Below, piece by piece: positions 10,003-56,585 of a stretch of DNA of 64,000 nt. The notes under the pieces are model-generated. The model had not been told where the DNA came from. It searched no databases and saw only the letters and a list, made by a program, of their open reading frames with translations. Within the stretch, counting starts at the first letter, position 1; each line of letters begins with the position of its first letter. Source of the stretch: an uncultured Methanosarcinales archaeon. Its GTDB lineage: Archaea; Nanobdellota; Nanobdellia; Woesearchaeales; UBA9642. The stretch spans positions 7,232 to 71,231 of the forward strand of contig CAZQDS010000001.1 of NCBI GenBank assembly GCA_964591655.1, in the 5' to 3' direction. Both the position numbers and the translations under genes were made by a program.

Positions 10003-10009
10003 TCCTAAA

Positions 10010-13369: not shown

Positions 13370-13444
13370 ACGAAAAATATGCTTGAATACGCTAAACAAG
13401 ATTGATTTAAAAACAAAATCTTTATATACTAAAAACGTAAGGAA

Positions 13445-14671: not shown

Positions 14672-14684
14672 AGAAGGTGATCTT

Positions 14685-17342: not shown

Positions 17343-19141
17343 TTACCTATCTCTCAGCATCGCTGTCAAGTAAGGCCATAATTCTGCTTCCGGATCAGAA
17401 TATTTTATCAATAGCACTTGGCTTCCTGAAGTGTTTGTGTACTCATAATATGCTCCGCCTATCGTCTTATTGACATATTCTATGTTGAAAGAGTTGTTCT
17501 GAGGAATATTCTGTCCTGTCATATTTAGATACATCAATGTCATCAATTCCTGAACTTGCTCATCATACTTCCTTTCTTCAACGCCATAAACTTTCAGGGT
17601 GTTATTGTTCAGCACATATAGTCTTTCATAATTTTTAGTCTGCGCAGCCAATCCTAAAGGCTCTGAAGGAGTATACCCGAATAGGTTTTGGAAGAATCCT
17701 ACTATTGCATTCCATATGTTGCTGAAGAATCCTCCTTCAATATTTAATTCTGAATCGCTCACCAGATAATAAAATGAGTCTAAATTGACATAAAGATATA
17801 GGGCGCCGTTGGTGGCACCATAATGCCCGCACTTCACAAATGTTGCTTCGGCATCATATCCGTCGCAGACACGATAACTTTCTCTCACAAACGAAGGGAC
17901 TATCAATTCTATGTCTAAAACATTTCCTGTCAAATCCGCGATATGTTTTTGGTACAATCTCCACATTATATCATCTGATCCATCTACATCTGTCGTCGGA
18001 TCTTCTGCATAGAATCCTGTGATTATCCTTTCTTCATCGCCCTCTTTTGATATCAGCACGCAACCGCCAGGGATGACTCCTGAATCTACGCCTATAAGGT
18101 TGTTGAATATTGCCCCAGTATCATCACAGAATATTATGTATGGTTTGTCTGCAGAGATGTTCTCTAAAACATTGGCTATTAGGAACGTCTTCGTCGTCCA
18201 TTCGCCGTTCATGCAATAATGGTTACCTTGATTCATCACGAAATTATTGTTTATGAACTGTCCATTCTTTATGCACGAGCTTCTCGAATTATTTAAAGAG
18301 TCGATGAATGCTTGTCTGTTTTCTGGAGTCGTTCCGAATGTGTTACTGACGAAACAATCACTGTCTCTTATGCAATATCCTGATTCTTCGAAGTTCCAAT
18401 CATACTTGACTTGTGCCTCTTCCCAATTGGCATAATTAGAATCATTCAATATGCACCTGTATCCTCTTGAAAGCCAATGCATCGTCGTATTTACATGAGT
18501 CCTATAATAAGAATTGATATCTATTATGCTCCATAGATTAGAATTATTAGAGATATACCATGGATCAGATGTCACACATTGGCTTCCATCCCAACAATAC
18601 TCTGCAGGACAACAAGCAGTAGTAAGGTTTATCGGAGGCTGCAACTGTTGTTGCGCATCAATCGGAGAGACTTCCTTGAACGATATATCATCGAATTTCG
18701 CTTCAGTACATCCGGCATCAACATGTATCCTCACACTTACGTTTTTGAAATATCCTTGTGATGCGTCTGGATCGCTGGCTGGAAGAAGAACGGTTTTTGA
18801 ACCGCTGGTAGTTAATCTGAATGGCACATCATTAAAACAACCAGTCTGTACCCAATTTGTTCTGCTTAAACAACGACCATCATTCAAATCAACCCTTACG
18901 ACACATCCTGCGGCGACAGTTATGTTCGCCCTCAAAGTATATTCTTTCCCTAACCTAATATCGAATGGATCTGAATAGATATCGATAGCTGTGCCCGAGG
19001 TCGTTGTGCCTACTAAAACCAATTCTTCATTCACAGACCATCCTGTGCTTGTTGTACGCCAGCCACTCATGTCTGCATAAGCGCTCGGCAATAAAACTAA
19101 TGAAATTAATGCAATAATCCATAATGTTGTATTCTTCATTT
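17343..19141 (-). CDS. large secreted Cys-rich protein
   Basis: Probable start at 'MKNTTLWIIALISLVLLPSAYA' (signal peptide), abutting the stop of the upstream giant gene. Many Cys ('TACCPAEYCWDGSQC'). Confidence 0.5.
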
Positions 19142-22100
19142 TAATTTCCGGTATTGTTTCCTTGTTGTGCACATACTGTTGGAGGACAATCGCCACCAAA
19201 CTTTCCATTCTTCAACAACTCAGTAGCAGGAGGAATAGATTTCAGGTGTAGTTCTGAAGGGGTCGCGGGATAATACGAGTTATCAACTATATCGTATGAT
19301 TGCCCTATTCCCGGAGTATATTGTCTCCATATTCCATTGAAGCAATAATAATCATCTCTGACTTCACATTGGTCATTTACATAAGTATTCACCAATTGTG
19401 GATAGCTTGTCTGATATGTTCCATCATAACTTACTCTTATAGAATAATATTTTCCTGATGGAACTTGACATCCAATAAAAGTGTTGTTGAAATATAATAA
19501 ATCAGAATAATTATAAGATTTTAATTCATCTAACATACTAAAAAATTTAGTGTTATCTTCATAATATCCGTGTGATTTCCAAACAGATTCTCCTTCAGGA
19601 ACACCTATTCCTGCAAAGCATCCGGCAGATTTATCCCATGTCGGAACAGAACTATCATTAAAGTATTCAGGATATTTAGTAGGGTCAGTAATATCCGTGT
19701 CATCTCCACAACAATGATGTCCTGTCCATATATATGGCCATTGTGCTTCACATGTTACGGCGTATCGCCCGTATCCTTCAAGCCATGCGTCATCACCGAT
19801 AAAGAATGTGTCTGTCGGATTGGTTATTTCTGAATCTAATTGAGGAATCCATGCAGCGAACCCTCCTGTACAATAATGGTTATCTGACCCGGCAGTGGCT
19901 TGTGTAGGGTCTATTGTTAAGTATATATTATCATATTTGAATTCTGCAATACTAGGGAATACGCTTCCATTTAAATCTACTTTTATTGTTTGTAGTATTT
20001 GCTGTTTATTTTCAGGTTTTATCCTTATCTTAATATGATGTGGAATCAATTCCTGATCTCCGTTTGTAGAATAAGTAGTTAATAAATCGTAAGGAACATC
20101 ATTTATATAAACTTTCCCTACCCTATTTTTACGATTGTATACTACGTCCATTTCTATATAATCAAAATAACTTAGGAAAAAATTCTTGTCATCAATATTT
20201 GTGAGAGAGTATCGCACAGATGTTTCAGTCGTAAACCTTTTTGCTAAATCATCTATTTTTGATATGCCTGATTTAAAACGATCATAGGATTTTATAATAT
20301 TATAATTGAGCCCTAATGAAAATATCCTGTTTTGTGTTATATCAACATATGGTGTTCCGCCAAACTGCTTAAAATTATTACAATCACCTACACAGCACTG
20401 TCCAAAATAATTATTTGACTCTGATGCAAAACAAGAGAAGGTGGCATTATTCTCGTTTTCAAAAAAAGAGAATGGGAAAAAAAGTTTGTCCATAAATACG
20501 CCGAAACAACAATATGTGTCATCATCAATCATCACATCTTGATCTGGCGGAGCACATATTAGGTTTTCTGTTTTTTCATAAGGCGTGCCTCCTGCCAGAG
20601 TACATTCATCCTCATTTGTTATTAGGGTTCCGAGCAGACATTCTTTATCTTCAGGATCTCCAAAACAGCATCTTTCTCCTTGAGGATACACTATTGCTCC
20701 GTTAACGCAAACATTACCTAAAGCGCAAGGAAGCCCTCTCCCAAAATCTTGCGCTGCACAAGATTTTCCTTCATCATAGGTAGATAAATCTGAACATAAT
20801 CTTTCATTTTGTTTACATATTTCCTTCAAAATCTCTTCTTCGCCAAATCCTCCCGCACCCAAACAAAAAGGATTGGTTGGGTATAACAAACAAAAATAAT
20901 TTTCTGTACTCGCATCAGAGAAACAGTAACATCCTTTTGCCGATTCTGGGTCTGCAAAAATATTTTTTGGTTCTCCATTCTCACAACAAGGATATTGTAT
21001 TGGCACATTATTACAATCATAGTGCGGATTTCCTGTTAATATTGTAGCTATATCACTACACTCCATGTTGTTTAAATTTCTATTAGGCGGTGCAGGGAAA
21101 GAATCATATTCTAACACGGGCAATCCTTTCAATCCAGTCGTTCCATCCGCATTACAATAATACCACTTGTCCGAATTTGATATATAATCGACTGTTTTTC
21201 CAGAAAAATTCAATGGAGTTATCAAGAAAGGTTTTTCTGGAGCAGATATCCACATCCATTTATCTTCTGTGCCACCATAAAAGTTTGTTTTATTGTTATA
21301 ACATAAATATTTATTATCAGGAGTTACATACCCATAGTCTCCGCCATTCAATGGAAAACTTATTCTAATATAATCTACCCATGATTCTTGCCCAGTATTA
21401 TGTGTGGTCACTCTCAAAATCCTTAATCGCACATCGTTGACTGTTATTGAACAAGATCTTTCAACACCCGGCGTTACTGGATGTAATATGACGCCATGCA
21501 TTCTGCCCGGATCGCCCACTACTCTAAGAGGGTCGCATCCCTCAACAGTGATGTCAGCGTTATTAATGAAAAATCCTGTTCCAGTATCATCCATAAAATA
21601 AACACGTAAGGTCGCGCCTGATTTTGAAGGGTCGTCATTTATCGTGAAAGTCGTCTTTTGATTATTATAAGAATAAGAAATATCTTTCATGGCACCACTA
21701 TTCGCGGTGATTAATTTCAAAAAGCCATCTTCAATAGTTGGAGAAGGATAGCCCGGTTGTGGTTGCCAACCATTACTATTATCATTGAAAGGTTCGAAAA
21801 ACAATTCGTCTTCGCTAAAGTCATCTCCGCAACAACCATCGGCACCATCATTTGCAGAAGGATTATACCAGGGCTCCATCTCTATAAGCGGTTTTATTGA
21901 GCAATTGACTCCTCCACTCGTACAATCTTCATCATCTGTGTCTGTTTTTCCATCAAAATCATTATCATATTCATCGTTACATCTTGTTTCCTTATCATAT
22001 TCGCAAACACCTATCTTGCCATTGAAATCAAGTGGTCCTGTACGGGTTTTACAATCTTCATCAAAGCAATCGACATTTGGTTCTCCGAAATTAGGATAAC

Positions 22101-22920
22101 TGTCATTTCTAGCTAAATATCCTCTTGTAGTAAAATACTTCGTATGATCATACCATGAAACATTTACACCATCATCGGCATAAGTCCAATCGACATCATT
22201 GTCACGAAAATCATTACAGATAGTCTCGGTTTCTGTAATATAAGAATTCCATACAGAAGTGTATCTACTAGGAGGCATTACTGCGGCAAACGGATAATGA
22301 TTTCTAACATCATTGCCGCTCGCATCTACAAGTCGTACACGCATGAAATCCTTGCCGCCGCTTTCATGATAAAGAATAACTATCTTATTCCAGCCGCGCG
22401 TAACAGGGATGGCGGCGCTACTCCAGCCCCCTCCAGAGGTAATTGTGAAAGTGTGGGTATATGTTTGAGTTTCTGTTGTACCGACAAGCTCAAAGACTGC
22501 GAGTGTAAATGTATCATCAACACGATAGTTTATATAAAAATCCTTGTTAGAGGCAGAATACACAACGAAATCTGCTCTGGCATAATACGGACCGGTACAA
22601 TCGCCATCATCATCAAAATCTTCTGCGCCCTGATCAGCCATACAAAATCCAGCAAAATAATTTTCGTCCCACCCACGATCACCAGAATCAGAAGCAAAAA
22701 TTTTACCTAATACGGGCTCTCCACGATTAGTCCAATCTGATGGGAAACTCGGGCAAGAAAAATCACAAGTATGATATAAAAACTGATGCTCTCCATATGG
22801 ATAATTATCCCAGAATGAATCATTATAGAAAACCGGATCAAATTCTGCTCTTACACTAACCGATAATAATACGAATAGAACAGATATCAATAACCCTTTC
22901 CAGATTAGTTTCATAAACAC
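19141..22920 (-). CDS. giant secreted Cys-rich protein (1259 aa) with thrombospondin-type-3-like Ca-binding motif
   Basis: Signal peptide 'MFMKLIWKGLLISVLFVLLSVSVRA'; 'CNDEYDNDFDGKTDTDDEDC' (DxDxDGxxDxDDxDC); repeated 'CCGDD' motifs; more than 80 Cys. Confidence 0.55.
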   Translation of the reverse strand: MFMKLIWKGLLISVLFVLLSVSVRAEFDPVFYNDSFWDNYPYGEHQFLYHTCDFSCPSFPSDWTNRGEPVLGKIFASDSGDRGWDENYFAGFCMADQGAEDFDDDGDCTGPYYARADFVVYSASNKDFYINYRVDDTFTLAVFELVGTTETQTYTHTFTITSGGGWSSAAIPVTRGWNKIVILYHESGGKDFMRVRLVDASGNDVRNHYPFAAVMPPSRYTSVWNSYITETETICNDFRDNDVDWTYADDGVNVSWYDHTKYFTTRGYLARNDSYPNFGEPNVDCFDEDCKTRTGPLDFNGKIGVCEYDKETRCNDEYDNDFDGKTDTDDEDCTSGGVNCSIKPLIEMEPWYNPSANDGADGCCGDDFSEDELFFEPFNDNSNGWQPQPGYPSPTIEDGFLKLITANSGAMKDISYSYNNQKTTFTINDDPSKSGATLRVYFMDDTGTGFFINNADITVEGCDPLRVVGDPGRMHGVILHPVTPGVERSCSITVNDVRLRILRVTTHNTGQESWVDYIRISFPLNGGDYGYVTPDNKYLCYNNKTNFYGGTEDKWMWISAPEKPFLITPLNFSGKTVDYISNSDKWYYCNADGTTGLKGLPVLEYDSFPAPPNRNLNNMECSDIATILTGNPHYDCNNVPIQYPCCENGEPKNIFADPESAKGCYCFSDASTENYFCLLYPTNPFCLGAGGFGEEEILKEICKQNERLCSDLSTYDEGKSCAAQDFGRGLPCALGNVCVNGAIVYPQGERCCFGDPEDKECLLGTLITNEDECTLAGGTPYEKTENLICAPPDQDVMIDDDTYCCFGVFMDKLFFPFSFFENENNATFSCFASESNNYFGQCCVGDCNNFKQFGGTPYVDITQNRIFSLGLNYNIIKSYDRFKSGISKIDDLAKRFTTETSVRYSLTNIDDKNFFLSYFDYIEMDVVYNRKNRVGKVYINDVPYDLLTTYSTNGDQELIPHHIKIRIKPENKQQILQTIKVDLNGSVFPSIAEFKYDNIYLTIDPTQATAGSDNHYCTGGFAAWIPQLDSEITNPTDTFFIGDDAWLEGYGRYAVTCEAQWPYIWTGHHCCGDDTDITDPTKYPEYFNDSSVPTWDKSAGCFAGIGVPEGESVWKSHGYYEDNTKFFSMLDELKSYNYSDLLYFNNTFIGCQVPSGKYYSIRVSYDGTYQTSYPQLVNTYVNDQCEVRDDYYCFNGIWRQYTPGIGQSYDIVDNSYYPATPSELHLKSIPPATELLKNGKFGGDCPPTVCAQQGNNTGN

Positions 22921-23052: not shown

Positions 23053-25260
23053 ATGAATAAGGTTTTATCATTATATATTGTCGGTTTATTGTTATTTGGA
23101 GGAATCGTATTGCTTGCAGGGTGTACCCCACAGGCACCCGCAACAGCGACTCCAGAAGGAGGAACGTATCTCGCCAATAGTACAGATATGCCTACTGGTG
23201 AAGATGCTGCCGCATTGTCTGGCAATGTAATAAGATTTAATTCTACTGCAGAATTGGATGCATTCTTGAGAGAGAGACAATCCTCTTATCCGTCTGTTTA
23301 TCGTGGCGGTGTAATGATGGATGCGATGGTGTCTGCGACTGGCGGTGCCAAAAGCGCAGGTGCTCCTGTAGCTTCTGGTGCAGAAGAGTATTCGCAGACC
23401 AATGTTCAGGTTGAAGGTGTCGATGAAGCAGACTTCGTAAAGAATGATGATAAATATATTTATTTGGCTCAAGACAATAAGCTGATAATAGTGGATGCAT
23501 TTGATGAGAAGGAGATAGTTTCAGAGACTGATCTTCCTAAAAATGCTTATGCATCAAATCTTTTCCTTTATGGCGACAAGGTTGTTGTCCTTGCGCATTC
23601 TAGTGAGGAATCTTTCTATTTCAGGAAGTATGATATAATGCCGCAGCCTTCTTATGAGTCTGTGACTAAGGTGCTGATATATGATGTCTCTGACAGGAGC
23701 GACCCGGAATTGACCGAAGATTTCAAAGTCTCTGGAGATTATTTCCAGTCAAGGATGATCGATGATGTCGTTTATCTTGTCGCGGTCAAATATGCACAGT
23801 ATCCTGTCATGCCTCCTATAATATATGCTGAAAAGATGATCTCTCCGCCGATATATTATTTTGATAATGGTGAGGAACAATACAACTATAACACTATAGT
23901 CTCAATAAATGTCGATACGGAGAAGATTGTAGATTCTGAAGTGTATCTTTTAGGATACAGCAACACTTTGATGATGTCAGAAGATAACATATACATCGCA
24001 TACCAGAAACAGCCATATAGGTGCTGGGGATGGTATTGCAGAGACAATAGTTATGACAAAGAAAGGTTTACAGAAGTTGTCGTCCCATTATTAGAGGGAG
24101 AATTGAAGAGAGACATCCAGATAGTATTGAATAGCAAGGATTCTGATGATGAGCAATGGAATAAGATATCTGAGATATTGACTGGATTCTTTGAAAACAT
24201 AAGGGACGATGAGACTGCTCAAGACCAATATGACGAGATGCTTTCAGACATACAGGACGCATTAGATGATTATGATGCGAAACAATTGCTTGAGAACTCA
24301 AAGACAGTAATCCATAAGATTTCAGTAGATGATGGTGAATTAGACTATCAATCCAAAGGAGAGGTGGATGGAAGACTATTGAACCAATTCAGCCTTGATG
24401 AATATAAAGGATATCTAAGAGTTGCGACGACTGTCGACTTGTGGATGAATACTGGAAGGAAGACATACAATAATGTGTATGTCCTGGATAAAGATATGGA
24501 TGTTGTCGGTTCAGTCGAAGATATAGCGAAGAACGAGACAATATACTCTACAAGATTCATGGGCGACAAATTATATATGGTCACTTTCAGGCAGATCGAC
24601 CCGTTCTTCGTCATTGATTTATCAGACCCCGAGGATCCGGAGATACTTGGTAAATTGAAGATCCCCGGATATTCAAGTTACTTGCACCCATATAATGAGA
24701 ATTTCATAATAGGCGTAGGTAAAGAGACTGGGGAGAATCAATGGGGCGGTGTGTCGACAAAAGGCGTTAAATTATCATTGTTTGACGTTACAGACATGGA
24801 AAAACCTGAAGAAGTAGATAAGTATGAGATAGGGATGGAAGGGACAGACAGTCCGATACTTTATGAGCATAAGGCATTCCTTTTGTTCAACAACATATTA
24901 GTCATACCGATATCTGAAGTGACTTCAAGAGAGACAGGAAGATATGGCTATGATTATAAGTATTGGGATGGCGCATACGTGTTTGAAGTCTCAGAAGATG
25001 GGTTCGAATTGCTCGGGAAAGTAAAGCACGACTCGAGAAGCACATCGTATTATGCGTGGTGGGACAGGGCATCTGTAACGCGAAGCATAATAATGGATAA
25101 TGAATTGTTCACGATAAGCAACAAGTACATAAAAGTGAACGATCTTGACAATGAATTGGACTCATTAGGAAGCATAGAACTCCCATATGAGAACAACTAT
25201 TATCCTATGTATGCGACAGGCGGCGGAGTCGCTGTTTCAGAACCTGCAATAATGGAATAA
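23053..25260 (+). CDS. beta-propeller domain lipoprotein (Beta_propel-like family)
   Basis: Lipobox 'LLAGC'; 'SQTNVQVEGVDEADFVKNDDKYIYL' matches the hallmark of the archaeal/Firmicute secreted beta-propeller family. Confidence 0.55.
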   Translation: MNKVLSLYIVGLLLFGGIVLLAGCTPQAPATATPEGGTYLANSTDMPTGEDAAALSGNVIRFNSTAELDAFLRERQSSYPSVYRGGVMMDAMVSATGGAKSAGAPVASGAEEYSQTNVQVEGVDEADFVKNDDKYIYLAQDNKLIIVDAFDEKEIVSETDLPKNAYASNLFLYGDKVVVLAHSSEESFYFRKYDIMPQPSYESVTKVLIYDVSDRSDPELTEDFKVSGDYFQSRMIDDVVYLVAVKYAQYPVMPPIIYAEKMISPPIYYFDNGEEQYNYNTIVSINVDTEKIVDSEVYLLGYSNTLMMSEDNIYIAYQKQPYRCWGWYCRDNSYDKERFTEVVVPLLEGELKRDIQIVLNSKDSDDEQWNKISEILTGFFENIRDDETAQDQYDEMLSDIQDALDDYDAKQLLENSKTVIHKISVDDGELDYQSKGEVDGRLLNQFSLDEYKGYLRVATTVDLWMNTGRKTYNNVYVLDKDMDVVGSVEDIAKNETIYSTRFMGDKLYMVTFRQIDPFFVIDLSDPEDPEILGKLKIPGYSSYLHPYNENFIIGVGKETGENQWGGVSTKGVKLSLFDVTDMEKPEEVDKYEIGMEGTDSPILYEHKAFLLFNNILVIPISEVTSRETGRYGYDYKYWDGAYVFEVSEDGFELLGKVKHDSRSTSYYAWWDRASVTRSIIMDNELFTISNKYIKVNDLDNELDSLGSIELPYENNYYPMYATGGGVAVSEPAIME

Positions 25261-27877: not shown

Positions 27878-28096
27878 TTACCCCCAACGGTCATAATTAT
27901 AAAACAAATCACAGTCTGAAAAGACTTGTTGTCTAGGGGAAGTAAATACTCTTTATAAAGGTTATTATTTTGTTGCTATTCTTGAGTGAATACTATTTTG
28001 GATGTTGTTTTTAGATGTTGTTTTTAGTGCTTACATTTTTTATATTGATCCTAATATATCGGAATTTGACCAGTATTTGATGGAATCTTACAGACT

Positions 28097-28114
28097 CCTT
28101 TGTTTCTTCTGGAA
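28097..28114 (-). promoter_or_regulatory. ORB-like origin recognition box 1
   Basis: Exact 18-mer cctttgtttcttctggaa. Its reverse complement TTCCAGAAGAAACAAAGG resembles the archaeal mini-ORB core TTCCAGTGGAAAC. Confidence 0.55.
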
Positions 28115-28149
28115 ATTTGTTTTGAGTGTTTGAACGATTGTGCTTCTTT

Positions 28150-28260
28150 TTTCTCTTCTTTATTTATTTACTATATTGAAAATAATATATATAATATATA
28201 TAATATATATAATAAATAATAAATATAATAATATGTATAAAAGAAAACATATATTGAAAG
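28150..28260. promoter_or_regulatory. AT-rich duplex-unwinding-element candidate
   Basis: Run of almost pure A/T ('ataatatatataatatatataatatatataataaataataaatataataatatg') between the two ORB-like repeats. Confidence 0.5.
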
Positions 28261-28531
28261 AAATATTTATTGTTATTTTTACAGTTTTTGTGCTTAAATC
28301 ACGATAGTTGGCGTTCTTTGAGAGTGATGTGTGAGAAGAAATATCTATTCATTTTAAATATAAGTTTAAAACATCTTTAACAGATTCCGATAACATTTTC
28401 CATTTCTCCATAAGAAATCATGGGGTGGTATAGTGTTTCAAAACGATAATTCAGATAAGGTACATTCATTCATTTATATTCTAAGAATAGGTTTCTTTAA
28501 TATATTATAGAAATACAAAATATTTATATAA

Positions 28532-28549
28532 CCTTTGTTTCTTCTGGAA
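28532..28549 (-). promoter_or_regulatory. ORB-like origin recognition box 2 (overlapping the orc1/cdc6 promoter)
   Basis: Second exact copy of cctttgtttcttctggaa, about 12 bp upstream of a TATA-like 'tattataag' (28561..28569). An RBS-like 'gagggg' (28583..28588) precedes the ATG at 28594. Confidence 0.55.
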
Positions 28550-28593
28550 GTAGTTCAGTCTATTATAAGTTATATTCGTGCTGAGGGGTTTAA

Positions 28594-29799
28594 ATGGTTA
28601 TAAGTGATTTTTTAGAAAATTTCATAAAAAAAGAATCTCTGTTCAAGAACAAAGCAGTCCTGCAAAGCTCATATTTTCCAGAGGAAGTATTGCATAGGGA
28701 GGAACAGATAAATCAGATAGCGAAAATACTTGCGCCAGGTCTTAGGGCGGAAAGGCCATCAAATATATTCGCATACGGAAAGACCGGTACAGGGAAAACA
28801 CTCACGATACAATACACCCTAAAGGAGATAATCAAGATATCTCAGAGAGAGAACATCCCTCTGAAATATATCTATATCAACTGCAAACTGAAAAAAGTTG
28901 CAGATACAGAATACAGGCTTATAGCAGAAATAGCAAGACATCTAGGGAAGACCATTCCTCCGACAGGACTTCCTACTGATGAAGTCTACAACATATTCTA
29001 CAGGGCCATCAATCAAGAAAAGAAAGTGATAATAATAGTGCTAGATGAGATAGATCAATTGGTGAAGAAAATAGGTGATGAAGTTATATATAATCTCACG
29101 AGGATAAATACGGAGCTGAAAGAAAGCCAGCTAGCAATAATCGGCATAAGCAACGATGTAATGTTCGCTGACAATCTGGACCCGAGAGTAAAAAGCTCAC
29201 TTAGTGAAGAGGAGATAGTGTTCCCATCATATAATGCAATACAGATACAGGACATATTGAAGAAAAGGTGCAATGAGGCCGTAAAAGATGGGGTGATAGA
29301 GGACGGCGTGATAGCGAAGTGTGCAGCATACGCCGCCAGGGAGCACGGCGACGCGAGAAGGGCATTGGAGCTGATAAGGGTCGCAGTAGAGATCGCAGAA
29401 AGAAAAGGGATATCGAGCATAACATTGAAAGAGCTCGATGAGTCGGAAGAAAAGATAGAGAAAGACAGGGTCATAGATATAATAACGACCCAGCCGAAAC
29501 AATTCCAGCTCGTTCTTTATTCGATACTTATCATCGGGAACAGGAAAAAGAGCAACGACCCGATATTTACAGGAGACATATATCTGTTGTACAAGGACCT
29601 ATGCAACAAGACAAACCTTCGGCCGCTCACCCAAAGGAGGGTGTCTGATGTGATTTCAGAGTTTGACCTTTTAGGGATAATCAATGCCAAAGTAATAAGC
29701 AAGGGGAGATATGGGCGGACGAGAGAAGTGAACATAGTCACGAACGAAACCACCAACAACAAGATAATATCCTTGTTAGAAACATCATTGAACCTTTGA
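28594..29799 (+). CDS. cdc6: Orc1/Cdc6 replication initiator
   Basis: AAA+ Walker A 'FAYGKTGTGKTL', Walker B 'IIVLDEID', sensor regions and a C-terminal winged helix; 401 aa. Confidence 0.9.
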   Translation: MVISDFLENFIKKESLFKNKAVLQSSYFPEEVLHREEQINQIAKILAPGLRAERPSNIFAYGKTGTGKTLTIQYTLKEIIKISQRENIPLKYIYINCKLKKVADTEYRLIAEIARHLGKTIPPTGLPTDEVYNIFYRAINQEKKVIIIVLDEIDQLVKKIGDEVIYNLTRINTELKESQLAIIGISNDVMFADNLDPRVKSSLSEEEIVFPSYNAIQIQDILKKRCNEAVKDGVIEDGVIAKCAAYAAREHGDARRALELIRVAVEIAERKGISSITLKELDESEEKIEKDRVIDIITTQPKQFQLVLYSILIIGNRKKSNDPIFTGDIYLLYKDLCNKTNLRPLTQRRVSDVISEFDLLGIINAKVISKGRYGRTREVNIVTNETTNNKIISLLETSLNL

Positions 29800-36764: not shown

Positions 36765-37172
36765 CTATATCTTAGAATTTATTGCTGATTTCGCGCCGCA
36801 TGCCTGACATCTCATGAATGTAACGATTCCCTCTTTAGAAAGTTTTGTGTCCGGTTTACCGCACTCTTTGCATATCACGAACTGATCTACATACTGCTCT
36901 ATCTTCTCATTTATTTTCGAACTAGGTATCTTTGTGTTGAACACTAATAATTGTTTCTTTACCTCTCCTTTTGCTGCAGTCTCCCTTGAGATAAACTTTA
37001 GTAAATGCTCAGGAGTCCTCCTAAGAGCGGATGCTATCTGGAAGAAATTGCTTATGACAGTCTTATTGCCTTCGAGATGTCCGCTGACTTTAGGAACAAC
37101 AAACCTTTCTGAAGCTACAGAAACCTCTGGCAAATTCTTCTTTCCCCTGTCGAGCATCAGTTCATAATCCAT
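36765..37172 (-). CDS. eif2b: translation initiation factor 2 beta subunit
   Basis: C4 zinc ribbon 'CKECGKPDTKL...CQACGA' and a conserved N-terminal helix; 135 aa. Confidence 0.8.
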   Translation of the reverse strand: MDYELMLDRGKKNLPEVSVASERFVVPKVSGHLEGNKTVISNFFQIASALRRTPEHLLKFISRETAAKGEVKKQLLVFNTKIPSSKINEKIEQYVDQFVICKECGKPDTKLSKEGIVTFMRCQACGAKSAINSKI

Positions 37173-37229
37173 AAACTCAAGAATTTATGATGACTTATAA
37201 ATCTTTTCACTTTTCATAAAATATTTATA

Positions 37230-49512: not shown

Positions 49513-50076
49513 ATGGGTGAGACCATGATAGGTTGGATAATTACCGGCGTAGCAGTATTCATTGTGTTTATACTGATAGTGATGTATAATAGGTTTGTTG
49601 TTCTAAGGAACAGGATAGATAATGCTTGGGCCCAGATCGATGTTCAGCTCAAGAGAAGGTATGATCTGATACCTAATCTTGTTGAGACTGTCAAGGGATA
49701 TGCGAAGCATGAGAAAAAGGTCTTCACAGAAGTGACAAAGGCAAGGACTGCCATGATGGAAGCGAAGACTATCCCCGAAAAAGCAAAAGCGAACAATATG
49801 CTGACTGAGACTTTGAAAAGCTTATTTGCTGTTGCAGAGAACTATCCTAAACTAGAGGCATCAGAGAATTTCAGGATGCTGCAGGAAGAGCTTTCAGGAA
49901 CAGAGAGCAAGATAGCATATGCAAGGCAGGCATACAACGATTCTGTGCTTTCATACAATAATGGCACACAGCAGTTCCCAGGAAGCATCGTTGCAGGGAT
50001 GTTCAATTTCAAGCAGAGAGATTTCTTCAAGACAGAAGGTGCAGAGAAAGAGAATGTTGCTGTGAAGTTCGAGTAA
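49513..50076 (+). CDS. lemA: LemA-family protein
   Basis: N-terminal TM plus '[23 protein letters not shown]...[25 protein letters not shown]' (LemA signature). Confidence 0.75.
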
Positions 50077-50106
50077 TTTTTTTAGTTTTTTTATCTTATC
50101 TAATCG

Positions 50107-51015
50107 GTGATATTGATGGCTAACGCATTCGACGAGGTAGCAAAGAATAAGTTCAAGAGTTATCTCTTGATGTTCTTATTTGCCGCGATATTGATAGGAT
50201 TGGCATATGTAATAGGGTTGTGGTATGGAAACGGTAGTCCTGCTATCATAATAGGTTTCATGTTCATCGCATTCATAATATCTATATGCATGGCGCTCGC
50301 AAGTTATTTCTGGGGCGATAAGGCAGCATTGCAGATAAGCAACGCGAGGCCGGCAGACAGGCGACAGCATGCACATTACATAAATAGTGTGGAAGGTTTG
50401 GCTATTGCTGCACAAGTTCCTGTCCCTAAAATCTATGTCATCCCGGACCAATCGATCAATGCTTTCGCTACAGGCCGCGATCCTGAGCATGCAAGCATTG
50501 CCGTAACTGAAGGCGCATTAAAAAAGTTGAATCGCGTAGAGCTTGAAGGAGTCATCGCACACGAGATGGCACATGTGAAGAATTATGATATGCGATTGAT
50601 GACTGTCACAGTGATCCTTGTCGGCCTGATAGCACTATTGAGCGATCTATTCATAAGAAGCATGTGGTTCGGTGGTGGGAAGAGCGATAACAACGGGAAG
50701 GGGAACGCAGTGATACTCCTCGTAGGGATTGCTCTTGCGATACTCGCACCCCTATTTGCAGAGTTGATCAAGCTGGCGATAAGCAGGAAGAGGGAATATG
50801 CTGCAGATGCAACGGGCGCAATACTCGGTAGACATCCTCAAGGTCTGGCCGATGCATTGAAAAAGATAAAGAAGGATTCCGAAGAGACAAAAGTCGCCAC
50901 GAAAGCGACAGCGCACCTATATTTCAGCAACCCATTCAAGAAAGGAGCGTTCTCCAGTCTATTCTCGACACATCCTCCGATAGAAGAAAGGATAAGAAGA
51001 TTAGAAGCAATGTAG
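50107..51015 (+). CDS. htpX: HtpX-like M48 zinc metalloprotease
   Basis: 'HEMAHVKNYD' (HExxH), downstream 'EYAAD'; 4 TM helices. Confidence 0.75.
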   Translation: MILMANAFDEVAKNKFKSYLLMFLFAAILIGLAYVIGLWYGNGSPAIIIGFMFIAFIISICMALASYFWGDKAALQISNARPADRRQHAHYINSVEGLAIAAQVPVPKIYVIPDQSINAFATGRDPEHASIAVTEGALKKLNRVELEGVIAHEMAHVKNYDMRLMTVTVILVGLIALLSDLFIRSMWFGGGKSDNNGKGNAVILLVGIALAILAPLFAELIKLAISRKREYAADATGAILGRHPQGLADALKKIKKDSEETKVATKATAHLYFSNPFKKGAFSSLFSTHPPIEERIRRLEAM

Positions 51016-51032
51016 GCTTTTCTAAATATTTT

Positions 51033-51689
51033 TTATTGTTTCAAAACAAACAATTCCTTATTCAGCAAATTTTTTTCTAGGAGAGAATTTATCCTGTCTT
51101 TAAGTGCCATTCTCTCTTCAAATAACATTTCGATAGGGTCCTTATGGTCTGATCGTCCATTAGTCCGTGAACACGCCTCATAAAAATCCACTATACTCAC
51201 CCATTTTGACAATTCGATGCCCGTCTCTAACGTGTCTTTCTCCATCTTTATCCCGTTAACCTCTTTCAACTCTTCAGGATAAGACCCGAAATAACTTTTA
51301 TCTTGATATTTATGATGATATCCTGACACTATTGCTGCAACAGGGAATATTTTTGCCAGAAGGGCATATCCTAATTCAGGATGCTTCTTTATAGGGTGTC
51401 CTTCTGGGGGTATGCTCCTGAACGCTTTTCCATCAGCATCGAACAGCTCTTTTGGGAGGAATGATTTCCCTATGTCATGCATCAATCCTGCAGTGATTAT
51501 TGTATTATCAGAAAACTCTTTGAACATTTCCTTAAGATTATATGTGCCTATGGCGATATATGTGGAATGCGTCAATAACGCATTATTCACGTCATGTAGT
51601 CTTTTCAGATTATTTTTTATGAATTTTTTCTCTACTTCTCCATAATTGCCGATTTCCAACAATCTATCTATGACTTTGTAGTATGTCAT
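51033..51689 (-). CDS. HD-domain phosphohydrolase
   Basis: 'AGLMHDIGKSFLP' HD motif. Confidence 0.55.
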   Translation of the reverse strand: MTYYKVIDRLLEIGNYGEVEKKFIKNNLKRLHDVNNALLTHSTYIAIGTYNLKEMFKEFSDNTIITAGLMHDIGKSFLPKELFDADGKAFRSIPPEGHPIKKHPELGYALLAKIFPVAAIVSGYHHKYQDKSYFGSYPEELKEVNGIKMEKDTLETGIELSKWVSIVDFYEACSRTNGRSDHKDPIEMLFEERMALKDRINSLLEKNLLNKELFVLKQ

Positions 51690-51693
51690 TCTC

Positions 51694-52464
51694 TCACTCT
51701 AGCAATGTCAATGCAAACATAGAAGCTATTCCTAGAAGCATCATCAAGACTTGAAGGACGCTTATCTTCAATGTCCCTTCCTCGTGAGCGCTCTTGTGCA
51801 GTTGAGGTATCAATGTTGCGGCAACGATATATATTAGCGTTCCCGCAGAGAATGGTAGAAGGAATGCTAGCAACCCCTCTGTTTTTATCAATATGAATCC
51901 TATTATTGCGCCTATTATCGCTGTTGCAGACACTAAAAGGTTGAACATTATCGCTTTAGTTTTTGAATATCCTCCTGCAAGAAGCACCGCGAAATCTCCT
52001 ATCTCTTGAGGTATCTCGTGAAGTATGACCGCTATGGTTGTCGCTATCCCTACAGGGATGCTTATGACGTAGCTTGTCGCTATTATTATTCCGTCTATGA
52101 AATTATGGAATGCGTCCCCGAAAAGGTTCATTGTCGCGAATGCGTGTGTGTGCTCCTTATGGGGCAGGTCTTTATTGTGTATGTGTCTATGCTTGTAGTG
52201 TATTATCTTCTCTATTATGAATGAGAATACTATCCCGAACAATATGTATGTCGATGTCGTTGTCGTCTCATATTCAGTGAATGCTTCTGGAAGGAGGTGT
52301 ATGAACACATCCCCTATCAGTACGCCTACTGCGAAGCTTATGACATAGATGAGTATTTTTTTTATCTTTGATTCCTTCAAGAAAAAAAGTATCACTCCTA
52401 CAAGAGAAAGTATGCTTACTATGACTACGCTCGATAGGCCGTATATCACTGTTTGTATATCCAT
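51694..52464 (-). CDS. ZIP-family metal (Zn/Fe) transporter
   Basis: 'HLLPEAF' and 'HEIPQEIGDFAVLL' ZIP signatures; about 8 TM helices. Confidence 0.7.
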   Translation of the reverse strand: MDIQTVIYGLSSVVIVSILSLVGVILFFLKESKIKKILIYVISFAVGVLIGDVFIHLLPEAFTEYETTTTSTYILFGIVFSFIIEKIIHYKHRHIHNKDLPHKEHTHAFATMNLFGDAFHNFIDGIIIATSYVISIPVGIATTIAVILHEIPQEIGDFAVLLAGGYSKTKAIMFNLLVSATAIIGAIIGFILIKTEGLLAFLLPFSAGTLIYIVAATLIPQLHKSAHEEGTLKISVLQVLMMLLGIASMFALTLLE

Positions 52465-52547
52465 GTAGTTGGTAACTTAGAGGTATTTATATATCTTACT
52501 GGACATCCCCCCAAAACCTATTTAAACATGGTTCTGTTCTCTTTTTC

Positions 52548-54122
52548 ATGCTTCAGCTTCATCAGACATTATCATATTATAAGAGAAAAGAGGTCCAGAA
52601 ACTTCTTCTCATGTATGCGCAGGACAAGGAGATTGCCGTGCGTTATAATGAATCATTCGGGAAGCGTCCTGATGCATTGATGTACGAGAATGATGTGCTT
52701 GAATCTGCAAAGAAGGGCGCGACAAGTTTCCATTGCTCTGAAGAGCTATGGACTAATCCGTTGCAGATAAATCCTAACCTGAAAAAGAACGAGATCGATG
52801 ATCTGCGTAAAGGATGGGACTTGATACTGGACATAGATTGTCCTTATTGGACATTCTCAAGGCTTGCAGCTTACGTTTTCATCAAAGCATTGAAGGATCA
52901 CGGCGTCAGTTCTGTGACAGTTAAATTCTCAGGAAGCAAGGGATTCCATATTGCTGTGCCTTTCGAGGCATTCCCGAAGAAGCAATATTATCTTGACGGG
53001 AAATATTATGCTGTAAAAGAATTGTTCCCTGAAGGACCGAGAAGGATTGCGGCATATCTTGTCGATTACGCTGATAAGACATTGATAAAGATAGATGATG
53101 AGAAGATCACTTTCGGGAAGGTCTCTGTCCCTATAAGCAAGCTTGAGTCAGAGACAGGAACTAAGCGAGCGGACATGATTGTTACGAAATGCAACAAGTG
53201 CAATTCATCAATAACTGAGATGAAACAGTCAAGGATACAGTATATCTGTCCTAATTGCGAATACTCTGTAGAGGATGCAGATAAACAGTTCATGCAATGC
53301 CCGAAATGCAAGAAGATAATGGAGAAACATTCCTTGAATAAGAGCATCTGTAAATGCGGCTCTAATTCTGTAAGGACAGAATTCGACCTCTCAAAGATAG
53401 TCGCGGTCGACACGATACTGATAAGTTCCAGGCATCTTTACAGGATGCCATATTCTCTGCACGAGAAAACAGGATTAGTGTCTATGCCTTTCGACATAAA
53501 GCACATATTGAAATTTGAGAAATCAGAGGCCTCACCTGATAAGTTCAAGCCATACAAATTCTTAGACCGCACGGAATGTAAAGTCGATGAGGCAGAACAA
53601 TTATTCCAGAAAGCATTCGATTTCCAGACAGAGAAACAGAAGAAAGACATCTTGAAGAAAGATTACGTGAAAGAATACGGTTCAGGCAAAGGACAGGACA
53701 TGGAAGGGAATGCGCAGGCTGTCCCTGAAGAATATTTCCCTCCATGCATAAAGAAGATATCTTCCGGTTTGGAAGACGGGAAGAAAAGGGCATTGTTGAT
53801 ATTGATAAATTTCCTTTCATCATGCAATTGGCCTCATGAAAAGATTGAGGAGTATGTTTTGAAATGGAATGAAAGGAATTCTCCGGATAAACTTCGTGAA
53901 ACTTATATCAAAGGACAATTACGTTATCATAAGACACAGAAGGAGAAATTATCTCCTCCTAATTGCGACAATCGCGGATACATGATCGACACACAATTCT
54001 GCCAGCCAGACGAATTCTGCAAAAAGATCAAGAATCCCGCACAATATGCATCAAGGAAAGTATGGATGGCGAACAACGCTGGCGGAAGAAAGAAGAAGGC
54101 GGGGAAGAAGGGCGCGAATTGA
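52548..54122 (+). CDS. DNA primase, single-chain PriS catalytic domain fused to a PriL-CTD-like Cys-rich domain
   Basis: PriS catalytic 'LILDIDCPYW' (DxD) and 'FSGSKGFHIAVPF'. Internal Zn knuckles 'CNKCNSS...CPNCEY' and 'CPKCKK...CKCGSN'. C-terminal ~150 aa with four spaced Cys ('PPCIKKI', 'SSCNWPHEKIEEYVLKW', 'PPNCDN', 'FCQPDEFC'), consistent with a PriL-like 4Fe-4S module. 524 aa. Confidence 0.7.
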   Translation: MLQLHQTLSYYKRKEVQKLLLMYAQDKEIAVRYNESFGKRPDALMYENDVLESAKKGATSFHCSEELWTNPLQINPNLKKNEIDDLRKGWDLILDIDCPYWTFSRLAAYVFIKALKDHGVSSVTVKFSGSKGFHIAVPFEAFPKKQYYLDGKYYAVKELFPEGPRRIAAYLVDYADKTLIKIDDEKITFGKVSVPISKLESETGTKRADMIVTKCNKCNSSITEMKQSRIQYICPNCEYSVEDADKQFMQCPKCKKIMEKHSLNKSICKCGSNSVRTEFDLSKIVAVDTILISSRHLYRMPYSLHEKTGLVSMPFDIKHILKFEKSEASPDKFKPYKFLDRTECKVDEAEQLFQKAFDFQTEKQKKDILKKDYVKEYGSGKGQDMEGNAQAVPEEYFPPCIKKISSGLEDGKKRALLILINFLSSCNWPHEKIEEYVLKWNERNSPDKLRETYIKGQLRYHKTQKEKLSPPNCDNRGYMIDTQFCQPDEFCKKIKNPAQYASRKVWMANNAGGRKKKAGKKGAN

Positions 54123-54182
54123 AAATAAAATCCGTCAAACTCTTTGATCATTCGAAACTCAGCTAAACTGCGTTCGCAGAGT

Positions 54183-54383
54183 TTATTTTTCAGAAAGAAT
54201 ATAGAGACTCATCGAACAAAAAATGCCTTTAGCGAAGAAATATATCCCTATAGCAACCCACATGAAACTTTCCTCAAAATCCATGCGAGAATAATATAGC
54301 ATAATTGCTGCGGCAAGAGTGCATAATATAAATATAAGTATGCTCGCAAACGGAACCAATTTTCGTATGAATTGCAACGACAT
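54183..54383 (-). CDS. small membrane protein (66 aa)
   Basis: Two hydrophobic helices; weak. Confidence 0.25.
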   Translation of the reverse strand: MSLQFIRKLVPFASILIFILCTLAAAIMLYYSRMDFEESFMWVAIGIYFFAKGIFCSMSLYILSEK

Positions 54384-54463
54384 GGTATAATCATATTACT
54401 AAGCCTATTTATATCTTTCGGAAAAATAACTTGAAACTAATCGATATCAGTTTCTCAAAAGAA

Positions 54464-55381
54464 TTACAATTTCACTTTCATGAAATCATATGCGACTTCT
54501 ACGTTCTCATAGACGTCTCTGGCGTCTTCTAACACCTCGCCAGGTGTCTTGTATCTTTGTGAGATGTGTGTCAATATGAGTTTTTTTGAATTAGAGTTTG
54601 ATGCGAGCAATGCTGCCTGTTTTGCAGTCAAGTGCTTGTTGTTCTCTGCTTTTTCTTCTATTGCAGATGAATAAGATGCCTCGCATATCAACAAGTCCGC
54701 ATCTTCGGCAACGAGTGATGCGCCAGGGCATAATCCCGTGTCTAAGACTATGCCGATTTTTTTACCTCTCTTGATTGTAGAGACCATGTCTGGAGTGATT
54801 GTCTTCCCCCCTAATTGTACGTCTATCCCTTTCTGTATCTTCCCGATTAATGGTCCTTCAGTCAATCCGATTGCCGAAGCCTTCTTCATATCTATCTTCC
54901 TCACATCCTTTTCTATGAATCTGTATCCCAAGCAGGGTATTCCATGATCAAGTGCTGCAGCCTCTATGTAGAATTCCTCCTTGTCAAGAACGACCATCTT
55001 CTCATTCTTCTTAGGATTTATCTCATGCACTTGCATCATCAGCTTATTATCGAATATGCATGTTTGCAGGAGATGTTCAATCCTTTTTTCAGTCTCTCTA
55101 GGGCCGAATATCACTAATTTTTTCCTATCCTCATTCTGCGCATTCTGATTGCCAAGGGTCTGTATCAATCCGATCAATCCGGACACATGATCCCCGTGCC
55201 AATGGGATATGAGAACATGTGTGACTTTATTCCTGTTTATCCCTGCAATATTCATCTGCCTCTGCGTTCCTTCTCCGCAATCGAACAGCAATCCGTAAGT
55301 GTCATAACTAAGAAAGATTCCCGTCACGTTTCTCTCCTTTGTAGGCACCATGCAAGATGTGCCTAAGAATGTGAGCTCCAT
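54464..55381 (-). CDS. rnz: ribonuclease Z (tRNA 3' endonuclease)
   Basis: 'VLISHWHGDHVSGLIGL' metallo-beta-lactamase motif; short-form tRNase Z length (305 aa). Confidence 0.8.
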   Translation of the reverse strand: MELTFLGTSCMVPTKERNVTGIFLSYDTYGLLFDCGEGTQRQMNIAGINRNKVTHVLISHWHGDHVSGLIGLIQTLGNQNAQNEDRKKLVIFGPRETEKRIEHLLQTCIFDNKLMMQVHEINPKKNEKMVVLDKEEFYIEAAALDHGIPCLGYRFIEKDVRKIDMKKASAIGLTEGPLIGKIQKGIDVQLGGKTITPDMVSTIKRGKKIGIVLDTGLCPGASLVAEDADLLICEASYSSAIEEKAENNKHLTAKQAALLASNSNSKKLILTHISQRYKTPGEVLEDARDVYENVEVAYDFMKVKL

Positions 55382-55413
55382 GATATATTAGAATAGAAAT
55401 AGGTTTATAAAGT

Positions 55414-55968
55414 TTAAGGGTCGTATTGTTTCAGCGGTTCTGTAAAAATAAGGACATAATTATCCATCTCTTTTTCATCTTGTAGCATCATGGAAGGGAC
55501 CTTCATCGCCAGATAATTATTTCCTATAAAATATCTCGGGGCATATTGATGGATGTTCCATTTTCTTGTAGAAAATGTTTTTTTGCTCAACGGTATTATT
55601 ATTGAGAAGTCTTGCAAGATTATATCTACGCTTTCTTTGATGACGTTGAATGGCACGAGGCGATTCTTTAATAGGCCTCCGAATTTTGAATTTTCGGAAT
55701 ATCTGACGTCCGATACTTCTTGCGCAGGATGTTTTCTCCATCTCGTGTTTTTTTTGACATAGACTGTCGCAAACTTATTTTTTATGAGGGATAATTTATT
55801 TGCATGATACTTTGCTTGGCTTTGTGAAAGCGGTTCTTTGGCGCTTATTATCATCCCCTCAAGACTGTTGCTTATGATTTCATCAACATTCATCCAATTC
55901 ATATTGTTAGTATTCTCTAGTGGTATATAAATTTTTTTCTTATTAGCCAAACATTTAAAAACCGTCAT
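55414..55968 (-). CDS. hypothetical protein (184 aa)
   Basis: ORF only. Confidence 0.3.
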   Translation of the reverse strand: MTVFKCLANKKKIYIPLENTNNMNWMNVDEIISNSLEGMIISAKEPLSQSQAKYHANKLSLIKNKFATVYVKKNTRWRKHPAQEVSDVRYSENSKFGGLLKNRLVPFNVIKESVDIILQDFSIIIPLSKKTFSTRKWNIHQYAPRYFIGNNYLAMKVPSMMLQDEKEMDNYVLIFTEPLKQYDP

Positions 55969-55976
55969 TCCATTCT

Positions 55977-56585
55977 ATGATAATGCCTGAAGAGCTAATA
56001 GATGCAGACCTGTCGAAACTTAAAGTCAAGGACATAATAATAGATAGCAAACCGAGAAAGGAGAAGGTCAAGGCAGTATTTGCGAACGAAAGAGTGATCG
56101 CTGATGCATCTGATGAATCAAGAGAATTATATAATCAATCCAGATACGGGACAACACTCGAATCAGGGAAATTGCAGTTATCGCTCCTTGAAGCGCTTTA
56201 TCTGATGGAGAAGAACAGGCTCGAGTTGAGAGATTCGAGGAGCAAGGTCTTGAATTTTGAATCATTGCTGAAGAAAGCCACCAAGTTAGAGCCGAATTTC
56301 TATATACGATATTGTGTATTCAAGGACATGCGAAATCGGGGATACATAATAAAGACTGCATTGAAGTTCGGTGCAGACTTCAGGGTATATGATAGAGGTG
56401 TCAAGCCCGGCGAGGACCATGCACGATGGATAATCTATCCTGTCCATGAAGGATCAACACTTACGTGGTATGAGTTCGCGGCAAAGAACAGAGTAGCACA
56501 TTCTACGAAGAAGAGATTGATGATGGGCATAGTAGATGATGAAGGAGACGTCACATATTACGAGATAAAATGGCTAAAGCCGTAA
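55977..56585 (+). CDS. endA: tRNA-splicing endonuclease
   Basis: Catalytic domain 'RGYIIKTALKFGADFRVYDRG...HARWIIYPV' (conserved Y, H, K context). Confidence 0.75.
   Translation: MIMPEELIDADLSKLKVKDIIIDSKPRKEKVKAVFANERVIADASDESRELYNQSRYGTTLESGKLQLSLLEALYLMEKNRLELRDSRSKVLNFESLLKKATKLEPNFYIRYCVFKDMRNRGYIIKTALKFGADFRVYDRGVKPGEDHARWIIYPVHEGSTLTWYEFAAKNRVAHSTKKRLMMGIVDDEGDVTYYEIKWLKP

Follow-up and report, generated by a model that had tools for sequence, protein, structure and literature searches.

Within the 64-kb stretch of archaeal DNA analysed here (the window), one long open reading frame raises the question of whether a single polypeptide combines the two functional parts of an archaeal primase, and whether such a protein is the replicative enzyme of its host chromosome. 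The gene is complete in the ORF list (52548..54122, plus strand) and codes for 524 amino acids plus a stop codon. A sequence-only reading had proposed that it joins a PriS catalytic domain to a module resembling the Fe-S domain of PriL. We find that the gene is very probably the chromosomal replicative primase of a Woesearchaeota-type archaeon (DPANN Cluster 2), and that it belongs to the monomeric fusion family whose type example is NEQ395 of Nanoarchaeum equitans. Direct support for this assignment comes from domain homology, the conservation of catalytic residues and cysteines, the absence of the PriL N-terminal domain (PriL-NTD), the chromosomal context of the gene, and its lineage.

The start of the gene is consistent with that of its relatives, as the N-terminus coincides with the start of most homologues in the alignment, and an identical copy of the 524-residue protein is present in NCBI (P0001). 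A TATA-like element, ATTTAAAC (52521..52528, plus strand), can be read from the sequence 20-27 nucleotides upstream of the ATG. This element is a candidate archaeal promoter for the primase gene, in which case the transcript leader would be very short or missing. The protein carries 16 cysteines in total. Its full-length AlphaFold2 model has a mean pLDDT of 84.6 and consists of a mixed alpha/beta N-terminal domain, beta-hairpins, a linker helix, a low-confidence loop and a helical C-terminal domain. The chain ends in a basic tail rich in lysine and glycine (residues ~506-524; 54063..54119, plus strand) that is predicted to be disordered, with residues 513-524 modelled at a pLDDT below 50. Homologues also end in basic tails of varying length.

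The PriS (AEP) catalytic domain spans residues ~1-330 (52548..53537, plus strand), as judged from profile matches, fold comparison and conservation. The Pfam family PF01896 (PriS) matches residues 101-317 with 38.6 bits, which exceeds its cut-off of 26.8, and the NCBIfam model TIGR00335 also matches the catalytic half. Motif I reads DLILDIDCPYW and contains D95 and D97, motif II is KFSGSKGFHIAVP with the pattern S128-G129-x-x-G132-x-H134, and motif III consists of AVD288 followed by R295/H296. The sequence-only reading had quoted two canonical PriS motifs for the N-terminal part, and both are present in the sequence. Residues D95, D97, S128, G129, H134, D288, R295 and H296 are invariant in 32 full-length homologues that are 45-86% identical to the protein. 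An exhaustive family search of 1.84 billion cluster representatives (50% clustering) recovered 658 family representatives at E <= 1e-3, 312 of them at E <= 1e-30, and the catalytic residues are retained in 142-150 of the best 150 of the 658, which are 36-65% identical.

Foldseek comparison with the PDB likewise relates the catalytic part to human Pri1, P. furiosus 1g71 and chain A of P. abyssi 9f28/9f26 (E 1e-5 to 1e-3), and structures of LigD and Prim-PolC are among the matches in the same range. With the full-length model as the query, Foldseek returned matches to PriS/AEP catalytic domains exclusively and was uninformative for the C-terminal domain. A PDB search with the single primase sequence matched both human PriS and P. 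abyssi PriL (9f26_B).

The catalytic domain is followed by an interdomain linker (residues ~350-395; 53595..53732, plus strand), defined from AlphaFold2 secondary structure and pLDDT. It is composed of a helix at 350-377 and a loop at 378-388 with pLDDT values below 50. The remainder of the ordered chain is a helical domain of the PriL C-terminal type (residues ~396-505; 53733..54062, plus strand), identified through Pfam, NCBIfam, a PDB profile match and cysteine conservation. PF04104 (PriL) matches residues 358-476 with 23.9 bits, above its cut-off of 22.4, and the PriL equivalog models of NCBIfam cover residues 381-519 with a best E of 2e-10. In these NCBIfam models, the aligned part is confined to the last ~40% (positions 212-346 in a model of 360, for example), which argues that PriL-NTD is absent. 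A profile built from 24 homologues over the C-terminal 180 residues matches P. abyssi PriL (9f26_B) with an E of 7.8e-10, and in this alignment FPPC falls on FPPC and PPNC..C..C on PPNC..C..C. Thus, the proposed likeness to the PriL C-terminal domain (PriL-CTD) is borne out by PF04104, by the NCBIfam PriL models and by a profile match in which the cysteines align.

The C-terminal part contains five cysteines (400, 426, 473, 485 and 491). The sequence-only reading had counted four well-spaced ones, and this number holds for the invariant subset: C400, C473, C485 and C491 are present in 32 of 32 homologues (45-86% identity), as conservation in orthologues would have it, whereas C426 is not conserved. 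The same four are also invariant in the C-terminal alignment behind the PriL profile, and they are retained in 111-123 of the best 150 of the 658 family representatives. K413/R414, W428 and W440 are further invariant positions of this domain. The four cysteines most likely carry a [4Fe-4S] cluster, a property that we infer from their conservation and their alignment with PriL.

For a fold search of the C-terminal domain, residues 345-524 were modelled alone, which gave a pLDDT of 80.3 for these 180 residues. Most of the top Foldseek matches were to primase accessory domains: S. solfataricus PriX (5of3_C, 4wyh) came first, and the large primase subunit of yeast (8fod_B, 8foc_B) and its Fe-S domain (6du0, 3lgb_B, 6di6) were also matched. 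These matches are non-significant (E 0.25-6; TM 0.37-0.45). The structural comparison hints weakly at a PriL-like fold, and it is the sequence profiles that argue for a PriL-CTD.

A further element lies within the catalytic domain. The PF01896 match extends over 217 protein residues but 143 model positions, indicating an insert of ~70 residues, which is located between catalytic motifs II and III. Cysteine conservation, weak profile matches and the structural model place this insert at residues ~206-275 (53163..53372, plus strand). Its cysteines form two sets, C215/C218/C234/C237 and C251/C254/C268/C270. Seven of the eight are invariant in the 32-sequence alignment, and the signal at C268 is obscured because the alignment shifts there. 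The AlphaFold2 model includes beta-hairpins at 211-215, 229-233, 240-243 and 259-263, and the insert gives weak matches to the zinc-ribbon profiles of the Mut7-C C-terminal ribbon, YjdM, TFIIB and TFE. We therefore describe this segment as two predicted zinc ribbons that would each bind zinc. The sequence-only reading had noted two Zn knuckles; the zinc-type cysteine sets are indeed present, but the count differs in that four CxxC/CxC knuckles make up the two predicted ribbons.

The surroundings of the gene are those of an archaeal chromosome. ORF scans of the window reveal an RFC small subunit, orc1/cdc6, both PolD subunits (DP1 and DP2), MCM and FEN1, as well as a protein with an eRF1 fold (aRF1 or Pelota type), tRNase Z and a class I (Trp/Tyr-type) tRNA synthetase. 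Visual inspection of the sequence led us to label a 202-residue ORF at 55977..56585 EndA. In the GTDB species set, the closest genomes that carry the primase are Woesearchaeota MAGs (57-86% identity). The order LemA-HtpX-ZIP-primase-tRNase Z-EndA is conserved in the loci of the four closest relatives, and LemA-HtpX-primase persists in more distant loci.

No separate priL gene had been noticed in the window, and this observation stands. Neither PF04104 nor PF01896 matches any of the 30 largest other ORFs, and family profiles found no other copy of PriS or PriL-CTD in the six frames of the 64-kb window. One six-frame match (36768..37184, minus strand; E 0.0018) was rejected as a primase, given that it involves the zinc-ribbon part of the profile only.

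Carrying both a fused primase and PolD, the contig falls into the clade formed by Undinarchaeota and Cluster 2 DPANN, and the close homologues narrow this placement to Woesearchaeota-type archaea. The DPANN affiliation suggested from the sequence is upheld by the named close homologues (62-76% identity), which are Candidatus Woesearchaeota proteins; Woesearchaeota are part of the clade treated in PMC7414124 and in a 2026 preprint (bioRxiv 10.64898/2026.06.17.729505).

Several other identities for the gene have to be weighed. Monomers that combine an AEP domain with a helical domain are typical of plasmids and viruses (PMC3973330; PMC10250227), and a 2026 preprint argues for an original mobile-element source of the DPANN monomeric primase (bioRxiv 10.64898/2026.06.17.729505). 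In addition, the full-length model structurally resembles many viral AEP primases, with E values of 8e-9 to 1e-3. Thus, the gene could in principle code for the primase-polymerase of an integrated mobile element, of the PolpTN2 or pRN1 replicase type, rather than for the replicative primase of the host. However, the viral fold matches are only 7-20% identical and reflect the common AEP fold, and tblastn with the primase gave no match in 72,556 plasmid and 50,697 phage records. The neighbouring genes have housekeeping functions (HtpX, LemA, a ZIP transporter, tRNase Z and EndA), and Woesearchaeota genomes with primases of 58-86% identity share this gene order. The six-frame scan also leaves the fused gene as the sole primase in the window. 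PolpTN2, from plasmid pTN2 of Thermococcus nautilus, is an analogous chain with PriS-like and PriL-like parts (PMC3973330). Enzymes of its type are plasmid-borne, whereas the window primase is chromosomal and syntenic, and Raymann et al. (PMC3914693) report an independent origin for the pTN2 primase, which has no detectable sequence similarity to those of nanosized archaea. We consider a present-day mobile-element primase to be very unlikely; the primase family as a whole may have come from a mobile element long ago, but this is a question of ancestry and not of what the gene is now.

The nature of the C-terminal domain invites a different doubt, namely that it is a PriX-like or PriCT-like bundle that lacks an Fe-S cluster and uses its cysteines for zinc or for disulfides. 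PriX, which supplied the two best Foldseek matches of the isolated domain, is cluster-free, and an NCBIfam PriX model gives a weak match at residues 404-471 (E 0.028). Moreover, in ~17% of family representatives all four cysteines have gone yet the flanking motifs persist, and cysteine mutants of NEQ395 still prime (PMC10250227). Against this stand the invariance of C400/C473/C485/C491 in all 32 homologues of at least 45% identity and the alignment of these residues with FPPC and PPNC..C..C of P. abyssi PriL. Their 73/12/6 spacing is also near that of the experimentally verified [4Fe-4S] ligands of NEQ395 (75/12/8; PMC10250227). Since PriX itself is considered a variant of PriL (PMC10250227), a PriX fold match is compatible with homology to PriL-CTD, and a cluster-free bundle has little prospect of being the correct description. 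The least credible proposal makes the protein a LigD/NHEJ-type primase-polymerase that acts in repair. It draws on a weak match to the Pfam family LigD_Prim-Pol (PF21686; residues 77-146, 24.7 bits) and on the presence of mycobacterial Prim-PolC and LigD polymerase domains among the top Foldseek matches. The PF21686 score is below its cut-off of 27.4 and covers just the shared AEP core, however, and the LigD-type model TIGR02778 scores 16.3 against a cut-off of 214.7. LigD polymerases do not possess a PriL-CTD, unlike the window primase, no Ku or ligase gene is found among the primase neighbours, and the fused primase is the sole primase in these lineages (PMC7414124, PMC10250227). The chance that the gene codes for such a repair enzyme is negligible.

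A chromosomal replicative primase of the fused type fits well with what has been published on these archaea. The Nanoarchaeum fusion was noted by Iyer et al. in 2005, according to the citation in PMC3914693. Raymann et al. (2014; PMC3914693) described the N. equitans fusion as a PriS catalytic domain joined to a PriL Fe-S domain, and extended the fused primase to Nanohaloarchaea and Parvarchaeota. Dombrowski et al. (2020; PMC7414124) found the fused gene in all Undinarchaeota and Cluster 2 DPANN, of which it is a synapomorphy, while Cluster 1 DPANN retain separate priS and priL genes. The 2026 preprint, whose phylogeny of monomeric primases includes Woesearchaea, treats the monomeric primase as a synapomorphy of a proposed clade, Nanostetteria (bioRxiv 10.64898/2026.06.17.729505). 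A separate canonical primase is reported to be absent across the fused-primase clade (PMC7414124, PMC10250227, bioRxiv 10.64898/2026.06.17.729505). A preprint on complete Nanobdellota genomes held nothing useful about primase. The statement of the sequence-only reading that PriS-PriL fusions are known from Nanoarchaeota-type archaea is thus correct (PMC3914693, PMC7414124, PMC10250227). The fused primase of the window is an already known type, and it is the expected replicative primase for a genome of this kind and not an unusual one.

The best characterized point of comparison is NEQ395, a protein of 393 residues that a 2023 study established as an active monomeric primase and the sole primase of its genome (PMC10250227). 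According to that study, NEQ395 binds a [4Fe-4S] cluster through C289/C364/C376/C384, and starts its primers, which are ~9 nucleotides long, at triplets whose central base is T. Its domains do not complement each other in trans, a shortened linker leads to more aborted primers, and cysteine mutants lose the cluster and retain priming (PMC10250227). The window primase shares with it a single chain, an N-terminal AEP domain, a helical linker with a flexible loop, a C-terminal PriL-type domain, a DPANN host and the lack of PriL-NTD. By published residue numbers (PMC10250227), D87/D89/H125 of NEQ395 are equivalent to D95/D97/H134, and its linker helix (251-280) and flexible loop (281-288) correspond to the window linker at ~350-395. 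The loop after the linker helix comprises ~19 residues in the window primase and 8 in NEQ395. The window primase is also longer (524 versus 393 residues) and, unlike NEQ395, whose host is a hyperthermophile, has a basic C-terminal tail. The motif II histidine and the start of the linker helix are 126 residues apart in NEQ395 but 216 apart in the window primase, numbers which suggest that NEQ395 cannot accommodate an insert of ~70 residues (PMC10250227).

The canonical PriS-PriL enzymes of P. abyssi (9f26/9f28) and human (4rr2) have the same catalytic fold, catalytic motifs and regulatory-domain cysteine motifs, but consist of two polypeptides and include PriL-NTD, whereas the window primase is a single chain without it. 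They also differ in the position of the zinc-binding element. We take the zinc-knuckle ligands of human PriS to be located in the loop after motif I. In the alignment, the window primase runs directly from DID into CPYW at the position of the zinc-knuckle loop of human PriS, and the predicted zinc-ribbon pair sits elsewhere, between motifs II and III.

The family is large, with more than 4,900 primase homologues. Among the 120 best, almost every one is full-length, and any name given is Woesearchaeota or Nanoarchaeota. The window primase also shows homology over its full length to hundreds of family representatives. Full-length homologues named Candidatus Woesearchaeota are 62-76% identical to the window primase, and those named Nanoarchaeota are 46-50% identical. 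The highest identity (86%) is to proteins from related MAGs, the best homologue named Woesearchaeota being 76% identical. Several records that carry a fused primase are labelled Methanosarcinales or Alphaproteobacteria. Because it marks a lineage, the fused primase can help to flag mislabelled MAG bins. Additional domain arrangements were also seen, with LAGLIDADG inteins in some family members (P0170, P0201, P0259) and a C-terminal alpha/beta-hydrolase fusion in one.

Both the insert and the Fe-S cysteines vary within the family. Among 144 near-full-length representatives, about 53-58 (~40%) carry the zinc-ribbon insert, whereas in ~86 the corresponding segment is ~70 residues shorter and free of cysteines. 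The C-terminal domain of 24 of the 144 (~17%) holds 0-1 cysteines. In such members all four ligands are replaced jointly, and the motifs around them persist (P0128, for example, reads FPPA...PPNY). This loss is found in insert-bearing and insert-free members alike, and thus the family constitutes a natural experiment on the purpose of the [4Fe-4S] cluster in primases. The insert and all four Fe-S cysteines occur together in 41 of the 144. The window primase is of this kind and is an ordinary member of the family. There is likewise no family-level difference between it and other primases of the 'Nanostetteria' (Undinarchaeota plus DPANN Cluster 2).

These variations, seen at the level of alignments, appear to go beyond the literature that we searched. 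A search combining primase, zinc ribbon and Woesearchaeota found no mention of a zinc-ribbon insert in the fused primase. The word 'zinc' is absent from Raymann 2014 (PMC3914693) and from the 2026 preprint (bioRxiv 10.64898/2026.06.17.729505), and in the NEQ395 paper it occurs just twice, one instance being about metal cofactors (PMC10250227).

Homology suggests how the protein might function. We infer that it is an active primase whose domains divide the labour, in which the N-terminal AEP domain would make the RNA primer by forming a dinucleotide and then extending it. D95, D97 and D288 would hold two catalytic metal ions, and H134 together with R295/H296 would contact the nucleotide. By analogy with PriL-CTD and NEQ395, the PriL-type domain might bind the initiating nucleotide and the template, enabling dinucleotide formation, and might then stay attached to the primer at its 5' end. 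The helix-plus-loop linker (350-395), as a covalent connection, could substitute for PriL-NTD, the usual tether between the subunits. The role of the insert is more speculative. We tentatively raise the possibility that it is a lineage-specific element for recognition of template DNA, one that replaces or extends the canonical zinc knuckle of PriS, which is missing here after motif I, but we regard this proposal as doubtful.

As a fused primase, the window gene teaches nothing about primases that was not already known. The insert and the primases without Fe-S cysteines, on the other hand, are of potential use in studying the purpose of the [4Fe-4S] cluster and the choice of start sites by monomeric primases. 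If the proposal for the insert is true, Woesearchaeota-type monomeric primases would own a distinct priming-site specificity by means of their zinc ribbons.

The fused primase family, to which the 524-aa protein encoded at window positions 52548..54122 (+) belongs, does not uniformly retain the cysteines of its PriL-CTD-type domain. In alignment A3, which contains representatives of the family, all four Fe-S cysteines are substituted, as in FPPA...PPNY, in 24 of the 144 near-full-length proteins (~17%), including P0128, P0143, P0168, P0175, P0180, P0184 and others. These members keep the motifs that flank the lost residues, and the loss is seen in proteins both with and without a zinc-ribbon insert.

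This insert, a predicted double zinc ribbon within the PriS domain of the window primase (53163-53372, residues ~206-275), is itself present in only ~40% of the representatives in the same alignment. Unlike the window protein, the monomeric primase NEQ395 of Nanoarchaeum equitans apparently has too little space for it, judging from published residue numbers. The papers searched make no mention of the insert. Other members of the family are unusually long, and P0170, P0201, P0259 and P0140 reach 770-1019 aa. Three of these long proteins carry LAGLIDADG inteins inside the primase, and one has a C-terminal alpha/beta-hydrolase domain that may be a gene-calling fusion.

When window positions 49513-56585 are compared with the syntenic loci L001-L004 from MAGs of close relatives, the primase is 86% identical to its L001 counterpart. 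The neighboring LemA, HtpX, tRNase Z and EndA (the last labelled by eye) reach 90-94% identity with the same locus, and the exception is the ZIP transporter, which falls below the primase at 81%. These sequence identities suggest that the primase evolves somewhat faster than its syntenic neighbors.

Close homologs of this DPANN primase occur at L001, L006, L009, L010 and L012 in MAG records titled 'uncultured Methanosarcinales archaeon' or 'Alphaproteobacteria bacterium'. The underlying bins are probably mislabelled or contaminated, and comparable cases have been noted (bioRxiv 10.64898/2026.06.17.729505).

Elsewhere in the window, Pfam yields nothing at E <= 1e-3 for five consecutive ORFs at 8320-15674 (+; 560, 654, 464, 408 and 329 aa) or for a pair of large ORFs at 17343-22920 (-; 621 and 1259 aa). 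These may be the surface-protein blocks named in the sequence-only reading. A 735-aa Beta_propel-domain protein (23053-25260, +; PF09826, E 1e-152, a very strong match) is encoded beside the large unannotated ORFs. The gene at 6230-7183 (-) codes for an FmrO-family rRNA methyltransferase (PF07091, E 5e-22), which is unexpected in a DPANN archaeon because the best-known members of this family are aminoglycoside-resistance 16S rRNA methylases.

A low-GC gap of 716 bp (27878-28593) lies directly 5' of orc1/cdc6 (28594..29799), and PolD DP1/DP2 come after that gene. Within the gap, an AT-rich tract (~28160-28280) sits between two identical copies of the 18-nt sequence CCTTTGTTTCTTCTGGAA, which occur at 28097 and 28532. 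The reverse complement of this repeat, TTCCAGAAGAAAC, resembles the archaeal ORB core. On these sequence features, the gap is a candidate replication origin.
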